Assembly (NCBI GenBank): GCA_963816185.1
Contig: CAWFJJ010000006.1
Location: 1,326 to 65,325 of the forward strand
Direction of reading: 5' to 3'
DNA from: Thermoanaerobaculia bacterium
GTDB taxonomy: Bacteria > Acidobacteriota > Thermoanaerobaculia > UBA5066
DNA length: 64,000 nucleotides
A program made the position numbers and the translations under genes. Positions 6,099-16,914 of this stretch are shown one piece after another. Within the stretch, counting starts at the first letter, position 1, and the number at the start of each line of letters is the position of its first letter. Under the pieces are notes generated by a model. That model did not search any database and was not told the origin of the DNA. It saw only the letters and a list, made by a program, of their open reading frames with translations.

Positions 6099-7100
6099 GT
6101 GCAGGCTCTCTTTCGGCAGGAAGTATTCCACGCGGGCAGCCGGGTGTTCCGGTGGGAGGACGTCGTCCTGGCGGCGGAGCTGTGGGGCGACTGGAAGCTC
6201 ATCGAAGAGAGGGCGCTTCAGAATCTCGCCGTCCTCGCCTCCGTGGACTCCGGAACCGAATCCGCGGTGCCGGAAGATGAGATCGACAAGGCGGCGGACG
6301 ACTTCCGGTACGAGCGGGATCTCATCACGGCCGAGGAGCTCGAGCGTTGGCTCTCACGCTGGCGCCTCGACGCCGAGACCTGGCTCGGCTGGATTCACGC
6401 CACCCTGCTCCGCGACCGTCTGCCGGGCATCGTCTTTTCAGGCCGGCCGGAAGCAGAGGTTCGTCAGGTCGAGCTGGCCGTCCTCGCCGAGGCCGTCTGC
6501 TCCGGGGAACTGGAGCGTCTCGGTCGGCAGCTCGCCGCCCGCGCCGCGATCGCAGAGCGGGAGAGAGAACGAGAGAAGGTCGCCGACGACGAGGATCGAA
6601 ACTCGGCCGGGTCGCTCGCCGAGCGTCGGGAAGTCCTCGCCCGGCTGGAGCTTTCGTACGAGCGGTTCCGTGAGGAGGTGCTCACTCCGGACGCCCTGGC
6701 TGCGCGGGTCAAGGCGCGCCTTACCGATTGGACCCGAATCAGCTGCAGCGTCCTGAGGCTTTCGGCCGAAGACGCCGCGCGCGAGGCGGCGATGGCGGTG
6801 CGCCAGGAGGGAGTCGACCTCGGAACGCTGGCGGAGGAGATCGGCGAGGCCACGGAAGACGGCGTGGAGTTTCTCGAGGAGGCGGAGCCGGAGGTCCGTG
6901 ACATCCTTCTCTCGGCGAGGCCGGGAGAGCTCGTCGGGCCGGTGAACGTCGGCGACGAGTTCGTGCTCGTCTCTGTCCGCGCGAAGACCCCGCCGGCGCC
7001 CGACGATCCCGAGGTGCTCGAGAGAGCCGAGTCGAGCCTCCTGGAAGGGCTCGTCGCACGCGAGGTCGACAACAGGATCACGTGGACATGGAAGCCGTGA
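6099..7100 (+). CDS. PpiC-type (parvulin) peptidyl-prolyl isomerase domain protein; first gene of the exporter operon
   Basis: GTG at 6099 follows GAGAGG RBS; the ORF-track start at 5634 overlaps the divergent NRDE gene and is rejected. The C-terminus ARPGELVGPVNVGDEFVLVSVRA matches the parvulin core (G.SGPV.T.FGYH). Its stop overlaps the ABC gene start by 19 nt. Confidence 0.55.
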   Translation: MQALFRQEVFHAGSRVFRWEDVVLAAELWGDWKLIEERALQNLAVLASVDSGTESAVPEDEIDKAADDFRYERDLITAEELERWLSRWRLDAETWLGWIHATLLRDRLPGIVFSGRPEAEVRQVELAVLAEAVCSGELERLGRQLAARAAIAEREREREKVADDEDRNSAGSLAERREVLARLELSYERFREEVLTPDALAARVKARLTDWTRISCSVLRLSAEDAAREAAMAVRQEGVDLGTLAEEIGEATEDGVEFLEEAEPEVRDILLSARPGELVGPVNVGDEFVLVSVRAKTPPAPDDPEVLERAESSLLEGLVAREVDNRITWTWKP

Positions 7101-10100
7101 CGAGCAAGGCGAGCTCGGCCGCCGCATCGGAGATCGAGGCGGCCCGGATCTTCCTCGACGACCTGCCGCTCCTGAAGTTCCTCTCGCCCGCGTCGCGCGC
7201 CGCCGTGACCGCGAAGTTCGTTCCCGTCGCCTTTCCCTTCGGCGCCGTCATTCTCCGCGAGGGCGACCCCGCCGACGCCTTCTTCGTCGTCGTCGCCGGG
7301 AAAGCGCGGGCGGTGAAGACGGGGGAACAGGGCGAGGAGGTTTCGCTTGGCGTACTTCGGCCCGGAGACAGCTTCGGCGAGATGGGTCTTCTGGATCCTT
7401 CAGCAAAGCGGCAGGCCACCGTACGCGCCTCGAGCGCGGCGACGGTCCTCCGGCTCGACCGGAACGCCTTCGACGCGCTTCTTTCCGGTGATCCGGAGAT
7501 CCGGACCTGCCTGGAGCTCCACGTCAGGTACCGGAGCCTCCAGAACCTCTTCCGTCTCTACACTCCTTTTTCCACCCTTCCGCCGTCCGTCCTCGCCGGG
7601 CTCCTCCACCGGTTCGAGACGATCTCCGTCGCCGCCGGTGAGGCCGTCTTTCGACAGGGGGATGGCGAGGGGCCTCTCTTCGTCGTCGAGGAAGGGCGGC
7701 TTCGCGTCTTCACCGAAGACGATGGGCACCGGCGAAACATCGCTTATCTGCGAAAAGGCGACGTCTTCGGAGAGATCTCGGCCTTCACGGGGGAACCGAG
7801 AAAGGCCACGGTCGAGGCTGTCACGCCCTGCCGGCTCCTGAGCCTTCACCCGAGCGCCTTCCGGGCGGTCACGGACGCTCACCCGGAATTTCGCGCGGCC
7901 ATCGGACGACGTATCGCCCAGTACGACTATCGAAAAGAGGCCAGGGTGCCGCTCGACTTCGCCGACGAGCTCCTGCCCGCGGAGGCGCAGGTGGAGGAGG
8001 TGGGACCCGACCAGATCGACGAGGACGCCGATCGTCCGCCGGACGAATCTTCAGCGGAGGGATCCGCCGCTCCCTTCGCGACGGAAGACGGTCGGTTCGT
8101 CAAGGGGCCTCGGCGGATCCGCCGCTTTCGCTTCGTCCGGCAGATCGACGAAATGGACTGCGGCGCGGCCTCCCTCGCGATGGTCTGCCGCCACTTCGGC
8201 CGCGCGGTGAGCCTCGCGCGGATCCGGCAGCTCCTCTTCACGTCGACTGACGGCACCAGCCTCCGGGCGGTCTGCCGCGGTGCGGAGGAGCTGGGGCTCG
8301 CCGCGCGCTCCGTCAAGGCCTCGGCGAGGCACCTGGACCAGATGCCGCTCCCCGCGATCCTGCACTGGGGCGGCAACCACTGGGTCGTCCTTTACGACGT
8401 GAGCCCGACGGAGGCTCGCGTGGCCGACCCGGGGGTCGGGCTCAGGCGCCTTCCCCGCGCGGAGGTCGAGAAGGAGTGGACCGGCTACGCCGCCCTCTTC
8501 GACTACACGGAGGCGTTCGAGAAGGCTCCGGTGGGGCGCTCCAGCTTCGCCTGGCTCACCCGGTTCTTCCGGCCGCACGCGGGCGTCCTCGCGAAGGCGG
8601 CCGGCCTCGCCCTGATCGTCAGCGTCCTGCAGATGGTCCTCCCGGTCTTCAGCCAGGTCATCGTCGACCGGGTTCTCGTCGAGCGCGACGAGGGGCTGCT
8701 CCGGATCCTCCTTTTCGGGATGGGAGGCGTCCTCGTCTTCTCGACTCTCGCGATGGTCCTGCAGCGATATCTCCTGAGCTTCGCCGCGGTCCGGATCGAC
8801 GCCTCGACGCTCGACTTCGTCACGCGGCGCCTCCTGTCGCTTCCGATGTCCTACTTCTCGACGCGGAAGACAGGCGACATCCAGCGCCGCCTCATGGGCC
8901 TCCGGCAGGTGCGAGAGCTCCTCGTCCAGTACGGGGTCTCCTCGCTGACCGCCCTCTCGCAGCTCTCCGCGGTCCTGATCCTGATGTTCGTCTACAGCCC
9001 CCTCCTCGCGGGCGTCTTTCTCGCGACCGTCCCCCTCTACGCCCTTCTCATGCGGTACTCGAGGCGCCGGCTGCGTCCCGTCTTCGACACGCTCGAGGAG
9101 GCGTTCGGAAAGTATTCCGCCCAGCAGATCGACACCATCAAGGGGATCGAGACCGTCAAGTCGCTCGGGGCCGAAGGCTCCCTCCGTCAGCTGATGCTGG
9201 AGAGGTTCCTCGGCCTCGCCCGAAAGCAGTTCCGCGCCGACTTCACGGTCATGACCTACGAAGGCGCCGTCCAGGCCGTGAGCTTCCTCTCGACCGCCCT
9301 CTTCCTCTGGGCGGGGGCCGTCCAGGTGATGCGCGGGTCGCTCACCATCGGCGGGCTCGTCGCGTTCAACACCCTCGTCGCCCTCGCGAACGCCCCGATC
9401 GGGATCCTGCTCGCGACCTGGGACCACCTCCAGTACGGAACGGTTCTCCTCGACCGCCTGAACGACGTCTTCGAGCAGAAGCCCGAGCAGGGCGACGACC
9501 GGTCCCAGCTTCTCCCGGTCCGGACGCTCGCGGGAAAGGTGTCGCTCCGAAACGTCGGCTTCCGATTCGGCGGGCCCGAGTCGCCGTTGATCCTCGACGG
9601 CCTGACGTTCGACGTGGACCCGGGAAAGATGGTGGCGATCGTCGGCCGGAGCGGCTCCGGCAAGACGACCCTCGCCAAGCTCCTCTCCGGCCTCATGGAG
9701 CCGACCGAAGGATCGATTCTTTTCGACGGAGCGGACCTCAAGACGCTGAATTACCGGGACCTCAGGCGCCGCGTCGGCTTCGTCCTCCAGGAGAACTACC
9801 TCTTCGACGAGACGATCGCCCGGAACATCGCCTTCGGCGACGGCGAGCCCGACGTGGACCGGGTCCTTTGGGCCGCCCGGGTCGCGAGCGCCCACGAGTT
9901 CGTCGAGAGGTTTCCGCTCGGCTACGACACCCGGGTCGGCGAGTCGGGCCTCGCCCTCTCCGGCGGGCAGAAGCAGCGCGTCGCCATCGCGCGGGCCGTC
10001 TACAACCGTCCCCCGGTCCTGATCTTCGACGAGGCGACCAGCTCTCTCGACACCGAATCGGAGCGGGCGGTCAAGGAGAACCTCGACCGCCTTCTGGAGG

Positions 10101-10264
10101 GCCGGACGTCGTTCGTGATCGCCCACAGGCTCAGCACCATCCGCGACGCGGACGTCATCCTCGTCCTGGAGAAGGGACGTCTCGTCGAGCACGGGACTCA
10201 CGACGAGCTGATGGACCGCCAGGGGCTCTACTACTACCTGTCGAGCCAGCAGCTCGGGATCTAG
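7082..10264 (+). CDS. bacteriocin/RiPP-type ABC exporter: two cNMP-binding domains + C39 double-glycine peptidase domain + ABC TMD + NBD
   Basis: 1060 aa. Two cNMP-binding domains (GDSFGEMGLL..ATVRA and GDVFGEISAF..ATVEA); C39 active-site Cys (QIDEMDCGAASLAMVC) with HWGGNHWVVLY; six-helix TMD; Walker A GRSGSGKTT, signature LSGGQKQR, Walker B VLIFDEATS. Confidence 0.9.
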   Translation: MDMEAVTSKASSAAASEIEAARIFLDDLPLLKFLSPASRAAVTAKFVPVAFPFGAVILREGDPADAFFVVVAGKARAVKTGEQGEEVSLGVLRPGDSFGEMGLLDPSAKRQATVRASSAATVLRLDRNAFDALLSGDPEIRTCLELHVRYRSLQNLFRLYTPFSTLPPSVLAGLLHRFETISVAAGEAVFRQGDGEGPLFVVEEGRLRVFTEDDGHRRNIAYLRKGDVFGEISAFTGEPRKATVEAVTPCRLLSLHPSAFRAVTDAHPEFRAAIGRRIAQYDYRKEARVPLDFADELLPAEAQVEEVGPDQIDEDADRPPDESSAEGSAAPFATEDGRFVKGPRRIRRFRFVRQIDEMDCGAASLAMVCRHFGRAVSLARIRQLLFTSTDGTSLRAVCRGAEELGLAARSVKASARHLDQMPLPAILHWGGNHWVVLYDVSPTEARVADPGVGLRRLPRAEVEKEWTGYAALFDYTEAFEKAPVGRSSFAWLTRFFRPHAGVLAKAAGLALIVSVLQMVLPVFSQVIVDRVLVERDEGLLRILLFGMGGVLVFSTLAMVLQRYLLSFAAVRIDASTLDFVTRRLLSLPMSYFSTRKTGDIQRRLMGLRQVRELLVQYGVSSLTALSQLSAVLILMFVYSPLLAGVFLATVPLYALLMRYSRRRLRPVFDTLEEAFGKYSAQQIDTIKGIETVKSLGAEGSLRQLMLERFLGLARKQFRADFTVMTYEGAVQAVSFLSTALFLWAGAVQVMRGSLTIGGLVAFNTLVALANAPIGILLATWDHLQYGTVLLDRLNDVFEQKPEQGDDRSQLLPVRTLAGKVSLRNVGFRFGGPESPLILDGLTFDVDPGKMVAIVGRSGSGKTTLAKLLSGLMEPTEGSILFDGADLKTLNYRDLRRRVGFVLQENYLFDETIARNIAFGDGEPDVDRVLWAARVASAHEFVERFPLGYDTRVGESGLALSGGQKQRVAIARAVYNRPPVLIFDEATSSLDTESERAVKENLDRLLEGRTSFVIAHRLSTIRDADVILVLEKGRLVEHGTHDELMDRQGLYYYLSSQQLGI

Positions 10265-11466
10265 ATGGACGAGGCGCCGTTCCTCCCGAGCGACCCGCCG
10301 CCCTTCGCGGCCCGGAGCCTCGCATGGCTCCTGATCGCCCTCTTCGCAGTGGCCGCTGTCGTATCGGTGGCGGTCAAGGTTCCCGAAACGGTCGTCGCCC
10401 CGTTCGCCCTTGTGCCCATGCGCGGCACCGATCCGGTTCGCGCTCCGCACGGAGGCACGGTCACGGAGGCTCTTGCCGTCGAGGGGCGCCCCGTGGCCAA
10501 GGGCGCGAGGCTCTTTGCCATCCGGTCGCAGGAGTTCGGGGACAGGGCCTCCGAGCGGAAGGCGCTCGAAGCAGGCCTCGGCGGACTTGCCGAGAGCCTT
10601 TCCAACGCCCGGAAGAGATTCGACAGCGAGGCCGGCGAGAGGCGTGAGGAGGCCCGGAGTCTCGCCGATCGCGCGGCCTATCTCGATCGGATGCTGGCTT
10701 TGAAGAGGGAGCAGCTCGCCTTGACGCTGGAGCAGTCCGAGCGGGCGAAGAAGCTCGCCGACCAGGGGCTCGCGAGCTTCAACGACCGTTCCGACGCCCA
10801 GATCCGGCACAGCCAGACCGTCATGGAGCTCGAGCAGCTCCAGTCCGACCGGAGCGCGACCGGGAGCGCCATCGAGAAGCTTCGCGACACCGAAGCGGCG
10901 AAGGGGACCGAGTTCCACGAGGAGGAGCGGGTCCTCGAGGAGAAGATCGCTCAGGCGAGAATCAGGATCGGCGCGCTCAGCGGGGGGCGCCCTCCGCCGG
11001 CGGAGACGAATCTGGAAACGAGCTGGCCGTCACTTCTCCGTGCGACGGCACCGTTCTCGGCGTCACGGCGCGGCGGGCCGGGGCGGTGGTCCGCGAAGGC
11101 GACGTCCTCGCCGAGGTCGCCTGCTCCGCCGAGACCCTGCAGGCCGAGCTGAGCCTCCCGCAGGGAGGGCTCTCCCGGATCCACCCCGGCCAGAGCGTCC
11201 GCCTCCTCCTCGACGCGTTCCCGTACCAGCGCTACGGCGTCCGCGGGGGAAGGGTCCGGTGGGCCAGCCCCTCCGGGGTCGGGACCCGCGAGGCCGCGAC
11301 CTTCCCCGTCCTCGTCGACCTGGACGAGCAGGCCGTCCCGGCGGACGGCGAGCGCAAGCCGCTCCTGGCGGGAATGCGCGGCACCGCGCGCGTCGTCGTC
11401 GGCCGCCGCACGCTCGTCGAGTACGCCTTCGAGCCTCTCCGGCAGCTTCGGGAGAACCTCCGGTGA
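10265..11466 (+). CDS. HlyD-family membrane fusion/secretion adaptor; interrupted by a -1 frameshift at the G6 run 10981-10986
   Basis: ATG abuts the ABC stop (TAGATG). N-terminal TM plus coiled-coil in frame A (10265..~10985). C-terminal HlyD barrel (GNELAVTSPCDGTVLGV..GQSVRLLLDAFPYQRYG) in the frame of ORF 11086..11466. Adding one G to the G6 run restores a continuous protein (..IGALSGGAPSAGGDESGNELAV..). Confidence 0.75.
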
Positions 11467-11532: not shown

Positions 11533-12438
11533 ATGCGCCGCTGCCTCGACGTGGCGCGTGCCGCCTGCCGGACCGAGCTTCCGCTCCTCCTCCTCGGCGA
11601 GTCGGGGACCGGAAAGACGCTCCTCGCCCAGGCGATCCACAACTCCTCTCCGAGAGCGTCGGCTCCCTTCGTCTCCTTCAACGCCGCGGCCCTCTCCGAC
11701 ACGCTCCTCGACAGCCAGCTCTTCGGCCACGAGAAAGGGGCGTTCACGGACGCCAAGCAGCCGCTGCGCGGCAAGTTCGAGGTCGCCGACGGCGGGACCC
11801 TCTTCATCGACGAGATCGCCGACATGAGCCCGCTCGCCCAGGCGAAGATCCTCCGGGCGGTCGAATACGGAGAGTTCGAGAGGCTCGGATCCGAGCGGCT
11901 CCGCAAGGCGGACGTCCGCCTGATCTCGGCCACCCGCCACCCGCTGGAGCGGTTTGCGAACACCGAGCAGTTCCGGAGCGATCTCTTCTACAGGCTCGCG
12001 GGGCTCACCGTCACCCTTCCCCCGCTGCGCGAGCGGCCGAACGACCTGCGCGAGCTCGTCGCGGCCTCGATCCATCGCGCCGCTCACGCACAGGGACGGA
12101 CCATCTCCGGTCTCTCCCAGAAGGCCGCCGATGCCCTTTTCTCGTATCACTGGCCCGGGAATCTCCGGGAGCTCGACCTCGTCATCCACGCCGCAGTCGC
12201 GATGACCGAGGGCTCGGTGATCGAGGAATTTGCGATCCTGGTCCGAAACAACGGCGGGCCCGGGACGTCCCCTTCCGCCGCGCGGCCGGTCCCTGCGGCC
12301 GACCTGAGCCTCCGGGCCGTCGAGCGAGACCACATTCACCGGGTCCTCCGGGAGCTCGGGGGGAACAAGACGAGGGCCGCCAGGACCCTCGGCATCTCGC
12401 GCTCCCGCCTCGAGAGGAAGCTCAACGACGCGAAGTGA
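11533..12438 (+). CDS. sigma-54-dependent transcriptional activator (bEBP), AAA+ central domain + Fis-type HTH, no N-terminal receiver/sensor domain
   Basis: Walker A GESGTGKT; GAFTGA-like region EKGAFTDA; R-finger/ESELFGH-like motifs; C-terminal HTH (KTRAARTLGISRSRLERKL). No in-frame start codon exists between the HlyD stop and ATG 11533, so the protein starts at the AAA+ domain, PspF-like. Confidence 0.85.
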   Translation: MRRCLDVARAACRTELPLLLLGESGTGKTLLAQAIHNSSPRASAPFVSFNAAALSDTLLDSQLFGHEKGAFTDAKQPLRGKFEVADGGTLFIDEIADMSPLAQAKILRAVEYGEFERLGSERLRKADVRLISATRHPLERFANTEQFRSDLFYRLAGLTVTLPPLRERPNDLRELVAASIHRAAHAQGRTISGLSQKAADALFSYHWPGNLRELDLVIHAAVAMTEGSVIEEFAILVRNNGGPGTSPSAARPVPAADLSLRAVERDHIHRVLRELGGNKTRAARTLGISRSRLERKLNDAK

Positions 12439-13190: not shown

Positions 13191-13376
13191 ATGAAGAAGA
13201 CCACGAAGAAAAGCTCCTCGAAGGCCTCTCACAAGAGAGCCCGCAAAAACCTCGACGTCACGCCTGCCAAGGGCGGGACCGTCCGGGGAGGCGGCAAGGC
13301 GGGCTCGGGCAGGACTACTGTCAGCGACCTCCAGATCAGCAAAGTTGTCGACAAGAGTTCAGCCGTGCTGTTCTGA
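13191..13376 (+). CDS. precursor peptide P1 (61 aa); leader MKKTTKKSSSKASHKRARKNLDVTPAKGGTVRGG + core GKAGSGRTTVSDLQISKVVDKSSAVLF
   Basis: Strong RBS AGGAGAAACGCC-ATG; conserved leader shared with 14 other genes; long Ser/Thr-rich core; stop 23 nt before the CxxCxxCC-1 start. Confidence 0.7.
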   Translation: MKKTTKKSSSKASHKRARKNLDVTPAKGGTVRGGGKAGSGRTTVSDLQISKVVDKSSAVLF

Positions 13377-13399: not shown

Positions 13400-14542
13400 A
13401 TGGTACGGCTTCCGACGATCCCGGACACTCCCGCCAAAGGCCCGGCTCCGCTCCATGCACGCTGGCTCGAAGAGGCCCTCGGGGGAAAGATCCCCTCCGA
13501 GCCCCACGCCACGTGCGAGAGCTGCCCCATGCTCCCTGTGCCCGGCGGCGCGGACGGGGCCCGGGACGCGGTCTTCTTCAATCCCAAGACGAAGTGCTGC
13601 ACCTACCTGCCGAGGCTTCACAACTTTCTCGTCGGCGCGATCCTGGCAGACGAGGCGCCCGACATGGCCGAAGGGCAGGCGCGCGTTCTCGAGAGGATCG
13701 GAAAAAGGGTCGGCGTGACGCCGCTTTGGGTCGGCGCCGGTGGAGCGTACAGCCTCATGTACGACCACGGTGACGGGGTCTTCGGCCACAGCGAGGCGAT
13801 GCGCTGCCCCTACTACCTCGAGGATCGGATCGGCGGCGGCTGCGGGATATGGCGTCACCGCAATTCCATCTGCATGACCTGGTTCTGCAAGCACGAGCGC
13901 GGGGCCCGGGCGCTGCGGTTCTGGGACTCGGCCAAAGAGCTGCTGATGGCCGTCGAGGAGAACCTCGCGATCCACTGCCTCGTCACCCTCGGTTTCGACG
14001 ACGCGGCGCTCCGGACCAATTTCCCGTTCAAGGTTCCGAAGTCTCAGCGGACGGAAACCGTGAAGGGGGACGAGCTCGACGGCACGGTGAGCCCCGAGAG
14101 GTACAAGGCCCTCTGGGGAAGCTGGGCTGGCCGCGAGAAGGAGCTCTACCTCCTAAGCGACGGGATCGTCCGGAACATGGAGTGGAAGGACGTCGAGCGA
14201 ATCGGCGGCGCGAACGTCGCTCTCCTCTCGCAGCTCGCACGCGCTGCCTACCAGACGGCAGCCAGCGACGCTCTTCCGGAGCGCCTCGAAATCGGCAACC
14301 TCAACGTCATCGGCGCCGGGCGTAAGACCGTGCGCCTCGGCACCTACAGCCCATACGACCCCATCGATGCTCCTGCCGCGCTTCTTCCGGCATTGCCCGC
14401 CTTCGACGGCTCCAGGGTACCCGACGCCCTCCGCGCGATCGAGAAGGATCATGGGCTCGTCCTGAGCCCCGAGCTCGTCCGAAAGCTCGTCGACTACGGC
14501 CTGCTCCGCGCGGTGACCGCCCCCGAAGACGAGCGAGTCTAA
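13400..14542 (+). CDS. CxxCxxCC-motif protein (YkgJ / PF03692-like, family that includes flagellin lysine N-methylase FliB), paralog 1; candidate peptide-modifying enzyme
   Basis: 380 aa from ATG 13400 (the ORF-track start at 13127 is upstream repeat read-through). Motifs CESCPMLP..KTKCCTYLPRLHNF and CPYYLEDRIGGGCGIWRHRNSICMTWFCKHE match the recalled Cx2Cx..CC plus C..CxIY..RP..CR.FPF pattern of the family. 85-90% identical to paralog 2. Confidence 0.7.
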   Translation: MVRLPTIPDTPAKGPAPLHARWLEEALGGKIPSEPHATCESCPMLPVPGGADGARDAVFFNPKTKCCTYLPRLHNFLVGAILADEAPDMAEGQARVLERIGKRVGVTPLWVGAGGAYSLMYDHGDGVFGHSEAMRCPYYLEDRIGGGCGIWRHRNSICMTWFCKHERGARALRFWDSAKELLMAVEENLAIHCLVTLGFDDAALRTNFPFKVPKSQRTETVKGDELDGTVSPERYKALWGSWAGREKELYLLSDGIVRNMEWKDVERIGGANVALLSQLARAAYQTAASDALPERLEIGNLNVIGAGRKTVRLGTYSPYDPIDAPAALLPALPAFDGSRVPDALRAIEKDHGLVLSPELVRKLVDYGLLRAVTAPEDERV

Positions 14543-14605: not shown

Positions 14606-14737
14606 GTGAAGAAGACCACGAAGAAAAGCCCCTCGAAGGCATCTCACAAGAAGGCGGTCAAGAACCTCGAGCTCAAAACGGTTAAGAGCGGGACGGTCCG
14701 AGGAGGAGTACCCGCGGTCCAAAAGTCAGGGAGATAG
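14606..14737 (+). CDS. precursor peptide P2 (43 aa); leader VKKTTKKSPSKASHKKAVKNLELKTVKSGTVRGG + core VPAVQKSGR
   Basis: GTG start after AAAAGGAGAAACGAC; conserved leader; preceded by a truncated array repeat. Confidence 0.65.
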   Translation: MKKTTKKSPSKASHKKAVKNLELKTVKSGTVRGGVPAVQKSGR

Positions 14738-14885: not shown

Positions 14886-15145
14886 CGAGCGCCGCCTGCT
14901 GCAAGGATCGCCCGACCTTCGATGATGAAGACAGGCCGCCGAGGACCAAGCCGTCGCCGGGGGTTCGTCCTCCTCAGAGATCTCATCCCTCGAAACGACC
15001 CCAAAGGCGGGTCGGCCGGGAAAACGGTATTCGGTGAACGTCCCACGGTCCTCGAGACAGAAGAAAAGCACCCCCATGAGGATGTTCCGGCCGAACGAAG
15101 GCAGACGCCGGGTCACGGCCGAAACAGGAGGAAAGGAGACACGAT
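14886..15145 (+). repeat. intergenic array repeat, full copy R2
   Basis: ~260 nt starting at TCTGACGAGCGCCGCCTGCTGCAAGG..ATGATGAAGACAGGCCGCCGAGGACCAAGCCGTCGCCGGGGG.. and ending in RBS AGGAGACACGAT before P4; contains the spurious 75-aa ORF 14922..15149. Confidence 0.75.
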
Positions 15146-15286
15146 ATGAAGAAGACCACGAAGAAGACCCCGAAGGCCTCGCACAAGAAGGCGGTCAGGA
15201 ACCTCGACGTCAAGCCCGCGAAGGGTGGAACGGTCCGTGGCGGAATACATGGTGGCTGGGACCAGCTCGCGAACAAGAAAGTTTGA
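15146..15286 (+). CDS. precursor peptide P4 (46 aa); leader MKKTTKKTPKASHKKAVRNLDVKPAKGGTVRGG + core IHGGWDQLANKKV
   Basis: Conserved RBS and leader; core of the HGGWDQ type shared with P13 and P14. Confidence 0.7.
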   Translation: MKKTTKKTPKASHKKAVRNLDVKPAKGGTVRGGIHGGWDQLANKKV

Positions 15287-16453: not shown

Positions 16454-16725
16454 CGTCGAAACGAGTCACTCGAAACGACCCCTTCTCCGAAAGTGAACCG
16501 CGAGATGAAGACAGGCCGCGGTAAGACAAAGCCCTCGCCGGGGTTCGTCCCCCTCAGGGACCTCATCCCCCGAAACGATCCCAAGGGCGGGTCGGCCGGG
16601 AAGACGGTATTCGGCGAGCGTCCCCCGGTCCTCGAGGCAGAAGAAAAGCACCCCTTCAAGGATGTTCCGGCCGAACGAAGGCAAAAGCCGGGTCACGACC
16701 GAAACAGGAAGAGAGGAGAGACGAC
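16454..16725 (+). repeat. intergenic array repeat, full copy R4
   Basis: Same unit; contains the spurious ORF 16493..16729. Confidence 0.75.
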
Positions 16726-16914
16726 ATGAAGAAGAACACGAAGAAGACAGCCTCCAAGGCAAAGGGGCCCAAGGCGACGAAGAATCTCGACGTCAAGCCC
16801 GCCAAGGGCGCGAAGGTCCGTGGTGGAACTGTAAACAAGGGGTGGATCGAAGTTTCATCCTTCAGTTTTAATGCGGAACCCACCGTCAGTGTGACCGCGA
16901 AGAAGCCGTCCTGA
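16726..16914 (+). CDS. precursor peptide P10 (62 aa); leader MKKNTKKTASKAKGPKATKNLDVKPAKGAKVRGG + core TVNKGWIEVSSFSFNAEPTVSVTAKKPS
   Basis: Matches ORF-track 16726..16914; long Ser/Thr-rich core; its stop overlaps the GT41 gene start (TGATG). Confidence 0.7.
   Translation: MKKNTKKTASKAKGPKATKNLDVKPAKGAKVRGGTVNKGWIEVSSFSFNAEPTVSVTAKKPS

Follow-up and report, generated by a model that had tools for sequence, protein, structure and literature searches.

The window analysed here, a stretch of 64,000 nucleotides from a Thermoanaerobaculia bacterium (Acidobacteriota; assembly GCA_963816185.1, contig CAWFJJ010000006.1, positions 1,326 to 65,325), carries two paralogous genes within an array of small precursor genes whose leaders end in a double glycine (GG), and their products are probably a new type of peptide-modifying enzyme that is found in many soil bacterial phyla. 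We lean towards the view that the two paralogs are guided by the leaders and modify the peptide cores before export; lysine methylation, proposed as the reaction by analogy, is put forward tentatively. A sequence-only reading had picked out both genes as candidate tailoring enzymes of peptides that are made on ribosomes and modified after translation (RiPPs), and this idea was strengthened because the proteins have a predicted RiPP recognition element (RRE) fold and because relatives in several phyla lie tightly next to genes for GG-type leader peptides. Its remark that the PF03692 (YkgJ) family, to which it had assigned the proteins, was new to RiPP biology also stands: no paper in the literature searched ties YkgJ or PF03692 to RiPPs. 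The catalytic domain falls outside all established families of RiPP enzymes.

Both open reading frames (ORFs) were present where that reading had placed them (Table 1), and their products share 332 of 379 residues (88% identity, BLASTP). Their position directly after the precursor genes P1 and P14 was likewise confirmed by the coordinates, with P1 stopping 23 nt before paralog 1 and P14 ending directly before the TTG start of paralog 2. At the nucleotide level, the two genes are 87.7% identical with a dN/dS of 0.16, and their flanks give no gap-free alignment between the two copies, indicating that both paralogs are intact and under purifying selection and that both copies have been maintained, rather than stemming from a block duplicated recently. 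The stop codon of paralog 1 is absent from paralog 2, which runs on for 22 codons, and the resulting C-terminal extension reaches into the following precursor gene, which starts at 20779. The G+C content of the window is high (61-74%), and the nearest public relative is a metagenome-assembled genome (MAG) of the Thermoanaerobaculia (Acidobacteriota) with a syntenic cluster, in which the enzyme is 90% and the transporter 91% identical.

A word-indexed search returned 219 homolog clusters (90% identity) without any Pfam domain, and some family members are labelled 'Fe-S-cluster containining protein' by JGI. When 1.84 billion representatives were searched exhaustively with a profile, the family grew to about 2,000 clusters at 50% identity (1,995 with E ≤ 1e-3, 1,706 with E ≤ 1e-10 and 1,204 with E ≤ 1e-30); among the 150 clusters listed, most proteins are 340-400 aa long and match nearly the full length of the profile. 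When one genome per species was considered, a relative of the enzyme was found in 259 of 185,579 species genomes, distributed over Acidobacteriota, Methylomirabilota/Rokubacteria, Chloroflexota, Gemmatimonadota, Myxococcota, Alpha- and other Proteobacteria, Planctomycetota and Bacteroidota; of the 80 species genomes listed, almost all are MAGs or uncultured isolates. In an alignment of 56 family members (A1), eight cysteines are invariant in all 56 (C39, C42, C66, C67, C136, C148, C158 and C163), with the layout C39-x2-C42-x23-C66-C67 followed by the four downstream cysteines, so that the pattern of Cx2C, CC and later cysteines noticed from the sequence alone proved to be a family trait. C193 is nearly invariant (52/56), the non-cysteine residues E34, W151, R154, K164, H165 and E186 are strictly conserved, and the signature blocks GxCGIWRHR and CxTWFCKHxRG stand out.

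An AlphaFold2 model of paralog 1, computed with the family alignment (pLDDT 87, pTM 0.88), consists of a cysteine-rich domain (residues ~15-167), a helical middle part (168-288) and a C-terminal unit (295-371). The C-terminal unit, three or four strands and then three helices, structurally matches known RREs; the matches include the lanthipeptide/thiopeptide dehydratases TbtB, MibB, NisB and MadB, as well as McbB, ThcOx, the lasso-peptide RREs TbiB1 and TfuB1, and TglI. When residues 286-380 were modelled separately, Foldseek returned LynD, TruD, ThcOx and TigE (probability 0.99, TM 0.65) and also TbiB1 (probability 0.96, 87/88 residues), and no classical winged-helix transcription factor was among the top matches of the C-terminal domain. 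Judged by these models, this domain is predicted to have the RRE fold. The natural comparison set is formed by the RRE-fused RiPP enzymes TigE, LynD/TruD, MccB and NisB and by RREs of the PbtF/TbiB1 type; unlike in those, the attached domain is not a radical S-adenosylmethionine (SAM), YcaO, ThiF-like or dehydratase domain, the RRE sits at the C-terminus, and it gives no PF05402 match. The text and one supplement of a structure-based RRE census (PMC12710340) make no mention of PF03692 or YkgJ.

The co-occurrence check that had been proposed was run on 82 non-redundant enzyme loci with flanks of up to 10 kb per side. A first leader profile was dropped because it was too narrow and found close relatives only, and it was replaced by a right-anchored profile of the last 22 leader residues, together with a second leader class. 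Leaders of class 1 (...K.L..K.A..VKGG) gave 97 matches of at least 10 bits, 68 of which lie within 2 kb of the enzyme, a zone that makes up 24% of the searched sequence (P ~2e-21). Leaders of class 2, which have a hydrophobic or twin-arginine (Tat)-like start (e.g. 'SRRGLLKGALIALGAS') and end in ...LGADAxVQPNGG, were found in 12 further loci (L003, L013, L017, L023, L025, L029, L036, L041, L045, L046, L048 and L060), 140-300 nt upstream of the enzyme and on the same strand. Overall, 53 of the 82 loci contain a recognisable GG-type peptide gene, and in 45 of them, spread over many phyla, the GG site lies within 300 nt of the enzyme (median 211 nt); among the 37 loci with full flanks, 26 have a peptide gene within 2 kb. 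A C39 peptidase-containing ATP-binding cassette transporter (PCAT), mostly with two cyclic nucleotide monophosphate (cNMP)-binding domains, is present in about 23 of the 82 loci and is often accompanied by an HlyD-type protein and a sigma-54 activator. Beside the enzyme, no further long gene is conserved across the 82 loci. No PCAT was found within 10 kb in the class 2 loci, and the class 2 peptides may be exported through Sec or Tat.

Within the window, a profile built from the window's own leaders gave 20 matches (counted as domain-level rows) to the conserved lysine-rich leader ...K-N/D-L-x-V-K-P-A-K-G-G-T-V-R-G-G. The cores are short and variable: 119 distinct cores have a median length of 19 aa, and lysine makes up 12.5% of their residues compared to 2.8% in the background, for which the enzyme family proteins were used. 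Lysine occurs in 116 of the 119 cores against 41% expected, which bears out the earlier remark that many cores are lysine-rich. Class 2 cores are extremely rich in lysine, some of them poly-Lys or nearly so (e.g. VYAAEGDTDKKKKKKKKKAD in L060), and cores as short as LARQK and RLRLK have little to modify apart from lysine. Cysteine is almost missing from the 119 cores (0.2%), and cores this nearly free of cysteine rule out thioether chemistry.

Two core motifs recur across phyla, namely 'LPAVQK(V/S)...' (in the window at 14606..14737, and in L002, L008, L012 and L057) and 'KAKTA.KA.D.ID.YIRG' (L004, L009, L031, L044 and L082). Between the precursors lie members of a third family of small peptides, whose leader is rich in Arg ('...V.LL(K/R)DL.PR.D(V/I)KGG') and whose conserved core start reads 'S.GK..FGE', with GG sites at about 13056, 15012, 16592, 18473 and 19035 of the window (e.g. 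ORFs 14922..15149, 16493..16729 and 18945..19172) and further copies in L005, L015, L016, L020, L032, L033, L059 and L084. Each of the five window copies ends at the start codon of a lysine-rich precursor. Because it is conserved at the protein level across distant taxa, this family is probably a real gene and not a repeated untranslated spacer, and it perhaps encodes a signal peptide.

We infer each element of the scheme that follows: that the leader is bound, that the protein contains metal, that it is catalytic, that lysine is its target and that the reaction is a methylation. Each paralog would be a cytoplasmic protein of three domains whose targets are the neighbouring ribosomal peptides, prior to their export. 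The C-terminal ~85 residues, the predicted RRE, would bind the conserved lysine-rich leader and thereby bring the short, highly variable, lysine-containing core to the N-terminal domain, whose eight invariant cysteines, as in FliB and DpdM, are most likely the ligands of one or two metal or iron-sulfur centres. This domain would then modify the core, the likeliest chemistry being methyl transfer to lysine epsilon-amines, after which the cNMP-gated PCAT would cut behind the GG and export the product with its HlyD-type partner. Through the shared leader, one or two enzyme copies could serve about 20 precursors, much like ProcM does for the prochlorosins. The operating logic would be the same (one or two enzymes, some 20 GG-leader precursors and a C39 PCAT), but the enzyme family of ProcM is unrelated, and the cores here lack cysteine, so that no lanthionine can form.

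Lysine N-methylation is favoured as the reaction because both characterised proteins with such a cysteine motif, FliB and DpdM, methylate primary amines. FliB of Salmonella is a SAM-dependent flagellin lysine N-methylase with a CX4CX3CC motif, a [4Fe-4S] cluster and eight conserved cysteines (Wang et al. 2021, PMC8598068). Like the enzyme described here, it combines eight conserved cysteines, including an N-terminal motif of the C..C..CC type, with the lack of a Rossmann or SET domain, and it acts in the cytosol on lysines of a protein that is secreted afterwards, as we propose for the paralogs. It differs in its motif spacing (CX4CX3CC versus Cx2Cx23CC), in its linkage to flagellin genes instead of GG-leader peptides and in that no RRE has been reported for it; no similarity to it was detected with NCBIfam models, and no flagellar genes were seen near the enzyme, whose neighbours are GG-leader peptides, PCAT, the HlyD-type protein and the sigma-54 activator. 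DpdM, a YkgJ homolog (DUF3109), has the motif CxxxCxxCC and two predicted four-cysteine metal sites, the second of which is formed by the last cysteine of the motif and three downstream cysteines; it N-methylates the aminomethyl group of dPreQ1, and its role as a methylase has been validated in vivo (Cui et al. 2023, PMC10516641). In DpdM the fourth motif cysteine is followed by three cysteines about 10 residues apart, which resembles C67 with C136, C148 and C158 of the enzyme. By analogy, C39, C42 and C66 plus one further cysteine, and C67 with C136, C148 and C158, may fit such a two-site layout. DpdM acts on modified DNA, is much smaller and has no RRE.

Several observations weigh against leader-guided lysine methylation by a relative of these proteins. 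The assignment of the paralogs to PF03692 was not confirmed, as neither gave a match to Pfam (E ≤ 10), NCBIfam (E ≤ 0.1) or PADLOC, and the profile check against PF03692, run as the sequence-only reading had suggested, gave for both proteins the outcome that this reading had itself taken to speak against it. None of the 56 family members reached the PF03692 gathering threshold, although PF03692 was the only recurring Pfam family when the members were scanned one by one (19/56, all sub-threshold, best E 0.0021); an NCBIfam scan of all 56 returned only noise and no recurring model. Compared by hhalign with an alignment of 26 true PF03692 proteins (A2), A1 scored weakly (E ~0.04-0.05, probability ~1%). 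The best-aligned part pairs A1 residues 117-158 with A2 residues 81-117 (also weak, E 0.042, probability 1.3%) and covers the second cysteine block, 'FG..C.YL...CGIW.HR..C.TW' against 'FG..C.FL...CTIY.ARP..C.EF', and at a relaxed threshold the match is collinear from the CC pair onward. A contiguous N-terminal C..C..CC is absent: a 23-residue insert splits CxxC from CC, while true members (A2) have C-x2-C-x3-CC, and this gap is unlike that of any characterised member, even though spacing varies among cysteine-cluster proteins (CX4CX3CC in FliB, CxxxCxxCC in DpdM, Cx2Cx3CC in A2). The order CC, helix, FG..C..L...C.I(Y/W)..R(P)..C runs collinearly in this weak alignment with PF03692; typical PF03692 proteins are ~100-140 aa long compared to ~370 aa with two extra domains here. 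A distant kinship to the PF03692-type cysteine-cluster superfamily is therefore plausible from these sequence comparisons, and homology to PF03692, FliB or DpdM as such is without significant sequence support. In addition, no SAM-binding motif could be identified in the enzyme, the whole-family profile gave only a chance match to SpsA among PDB sequences, and whole-protein Foldseek against the PDB returned nothing significant, leaving the N-terminal and helical domains without a solved relative. As for the RRE, its Foldseek E-values are only 0.07-0.2, and the excised domain matched neither PF05402 nor other Pfam families or PDB sequences (apart from the chance SpsA match), which is usual for RREs because their sequences diverge strongly (PMC12710340). 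Three of the 119 cores contain no lysine, the lysine richness could instead reflect a cationic function or an origin of the cores from Hcp, the tube protein of type VI secretion systems (T6SS), and about 29 loci, roughly a third, have neither a recognisable peptide nor another conserved neighbour.

A canonical 138-aa PF03692 (YkgJ family) protein is encoded in L003 (7307..7723, minus strand), 2.3 kb from the enzyme homolog; it was used in building alignment A2, and its closeness to the homolog is probably coincidental.

An alternative explanation, which we regard as rather unlikely, keeps the leader-guided enzyme and replaces methylation by a radical or oxidative chemistry, such as a lysine-aromatic cross-link, hydroxylation or epimerisation. 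The RRE and the genomic context fit it equally well, the [4Fe-4S] cluster of FliB may mediate a radical mechanism (as suggested by Wang et al., PMC8598068), and many window cores place a lysine few residues from Trp, His or Tyr (WDQLANKK, PWKNKV, LDKWPG, KIHI). However, there is no aromatic partner in poly-Lys cores or in very short ones (e.g. LARQK and RLRLK), both characterised relatives are N-methylases, and the radical SAM motif CX3CX2C is absent from A1, with PF04055 unmatched in the Pfam scans. It is more doubtful that the proteins have no catalytic activity and serve as leader-binding chaperones, scaffolds or gatekeepers holding zinc in a structural role or a cluster that senses redox state, which would pass precursors to the PCAT or couple export to the state of the cell. 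The RRE fold by itself would only speak for peptide binding, the annotation of YkgJ-type domains goes no further than zinc or iron chelation, and the cluster already has regulation in the form of the cNMP domains on the PCAT and the sigma-54 activator. Against such a role, the eight invariant cysteines together with the six conserved residues named above, kept across ~2,000 clusters, suggest an active site, class 2 loci have enzyme and peptide yet lack a nearby PCAT, and in known systems an RRE joined to a large domain brings the substrate to an enzyme. A housekeeping cysteine-cluster protein that lies in the array by chance or through local duplication can be essentially excluded: although most YkgJ-like proteins have no known function and in about one locus in three no adjacent peptide could be recognised, the peptide genes next to the enzyme in so many phyla and with two leader classes, the RRE fold and the presence in so few species genomes, which is not the distribution of a housekeeping gene, all argue against coincidence.

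Many GG-leader cores are recognisable pieces of Hcp. Ten cores, 21-29 aa in length, were scanned against Pfam: five matched PF05638 (T6SS_HCP) and nothing else, and no other family recurred, the five matches lying at successive profile positions 16-39, 43-67, 47-68, 55-77 and 85-108 (E 1e-4 to 0.17); it is the only Pfam match of the P1 core (positions 43-67, E 0.003), and one other scanned core had a weak, unrelated match to PF09282 Mago-bind (E 0.072). Cores that resemble the Hcp N-terminus ('A(V/I)D(I/V)FAK(I/L)GDIKGES') occur in L028, L030, L032 and L057, those that resemble its C-terminus are 'GGWDQ..NKK' (three copies in the window) and 'SGWDLMANKKA' (L016), and further Hcp-like cores are 'KGWIEVSSFSF' in the window precursor at 16726, 'DLQISKVVDKSSAVLF' (window P1), 'ITKLVDKSSAVLFQKCATGEHF' (L016), 'TTLQDISFVHSVDKASPVLLQK' (L032) and 'RKAGKEQHEYLIVKMNDILIT' (L032). 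The peptides of a single locus (such as L016 or L032) jointly cover most of Hcp. Neither the window nor any of 84 loci has a full-length Hcp gene near the enzyme, and no Hcp-like sequence continues beyond the stop codons of the peptides, which shows that the cores are discrete genes; an origin from decayed Hcp genes was rejected on the same grounds. No description of Hcp fragments with double-glycine leaders was found in the literature searched. Hcp-like cores lie at 13290..13373, 15245..15283, 16828..16911, 19268..19309 and 19496..19534 of the window, and elsewhere in L015, L016, L020, L028, L030, L032, L033, L045, L057, L062, L063 and L072. It is conceivable, if improbable, that all of this amounts to a new RiPP class, in which a FliB/DpdM-like Fe-S methyltransferase fused to an RRE decorates lysines in exported peptide libraries, with many Hcp fragments covering most of Hcp at one locus and possibly serving as strand mimics that disturb or report the T6SS between bacteria.

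The window has the features of a PCAT-exported GG-leader cluster, that is, leaders ending in GG and an ABC transporter with a C39 peptidase (Table 1). This transporter, presumed to cleave the GG leader and to export the peptides, matched the NHLP-type exporter model of NCBIfam below its cut-off. The adjoining membrane fusion protein is disrupted; tblastn with the intact 400-aa ortholog from L001 located the change of frame at residue 242/243. Either the assembly is in error here or an export component has been inactivated. Immediately upstream of the PCAT, at about 6100..7100 on the plus strand, lies a gene for a protein of ~330-355 aa that stands beside the cNMP-PCAT in 16 loci. It has no confident Pfam domain, with a faint Rotamase_2/SurA-like match in L001, and may be an accessory export chaperone. 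An intact TPR + GT41 (OGT-like) glycosyltransferase gene (16914..18386), seen only in this lineage (the window and L001), is located among the precursors, and its product is a second candidate for a tailoring enzyme. An 83-aa ORF after paralog 2, at 20898..21149, matches the last ~45 residues of this glycosyltransferase (60% identity, E 3e-14) and is a remnant of a second copy.

Table 1 Features of the window that concern the two paralogs, their precursor peptides and the export genes.
Feature	Position	Strand	Description
PCAT	7082..10264	+	Pfam PF03412, PF00664 and PF00005; two cNMP-binding domains, C39 peptidase, ABC membrane and ATPase domains
HlyD/AprE-type membrane fusion protein	10265..11466	+	frameshift near 10990 divides the gene into two overlapping ORFs
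Sigma-54 activator	11533..12438	+	Pfam AAA+ and Fis-type helix-turn-helix; conserved in at least 12 related loci
Precursor P1	13191..13376	+	Lys-rich leader ending in VRGG; 27-aa core GKAGSGRTTVSDLQISKVVDKSSAVLF
Paralog 1	13400..14542	+	ORF with ATG start, 380 aa; eight-cysteine, helical and RRE-like domains
N-terminal cysteine-cluster domain, paralog 1	13442..13900	+	residues ~15-167; alignment A1, weak collinear PF03692 match
Central all-helical domain, paralog 1	13901..14263	+	residues ~168-288; AlphaFold2 helices H168-197 to H262-288
C-terminal RRE-like domain, paralog 1	14264..14515	+	residues ~289-372; three strands, then three helices
First precursor 3' of paralog 1	14606..14737	+	GTG start; core VPAVQKSGR
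Precursor P14	19394..19537	+	leader ending in VRGG; core VHGGWDQVGNKKY
Paralog 2	19538..20782	+	ORF, 414 aa from TTG at 19538; GTG at 19553 as alternative start
RRE-like domain, paralog 2	20438..20689	+	by alignment to paralog 1; 88% identical there
Precursor directly 3' of paralog 2	20779..20910	+	overlaps paralog 2; core ATRLDKWPG

The discovery of RiPPs rests on recognising the enzymes that define their classes, and this family of ~2,000 clusters has had neither a Pfam or NCBIfam model nor a literature of its own. The enzyme appears to couple a leader-binding fold to a type of catalytic domain that has never been linked to peptides, and it marks a widespread set of exported peptides, including those with Hcp-fragment cores. 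Should its chemistry be FliB-like, the small and defined peptide substrates would be far easier to handle than flagellin, and the enzyme would then be a better model for the unusual iron-sulfur-dependent methyl transfer that has been proposed for FliB.

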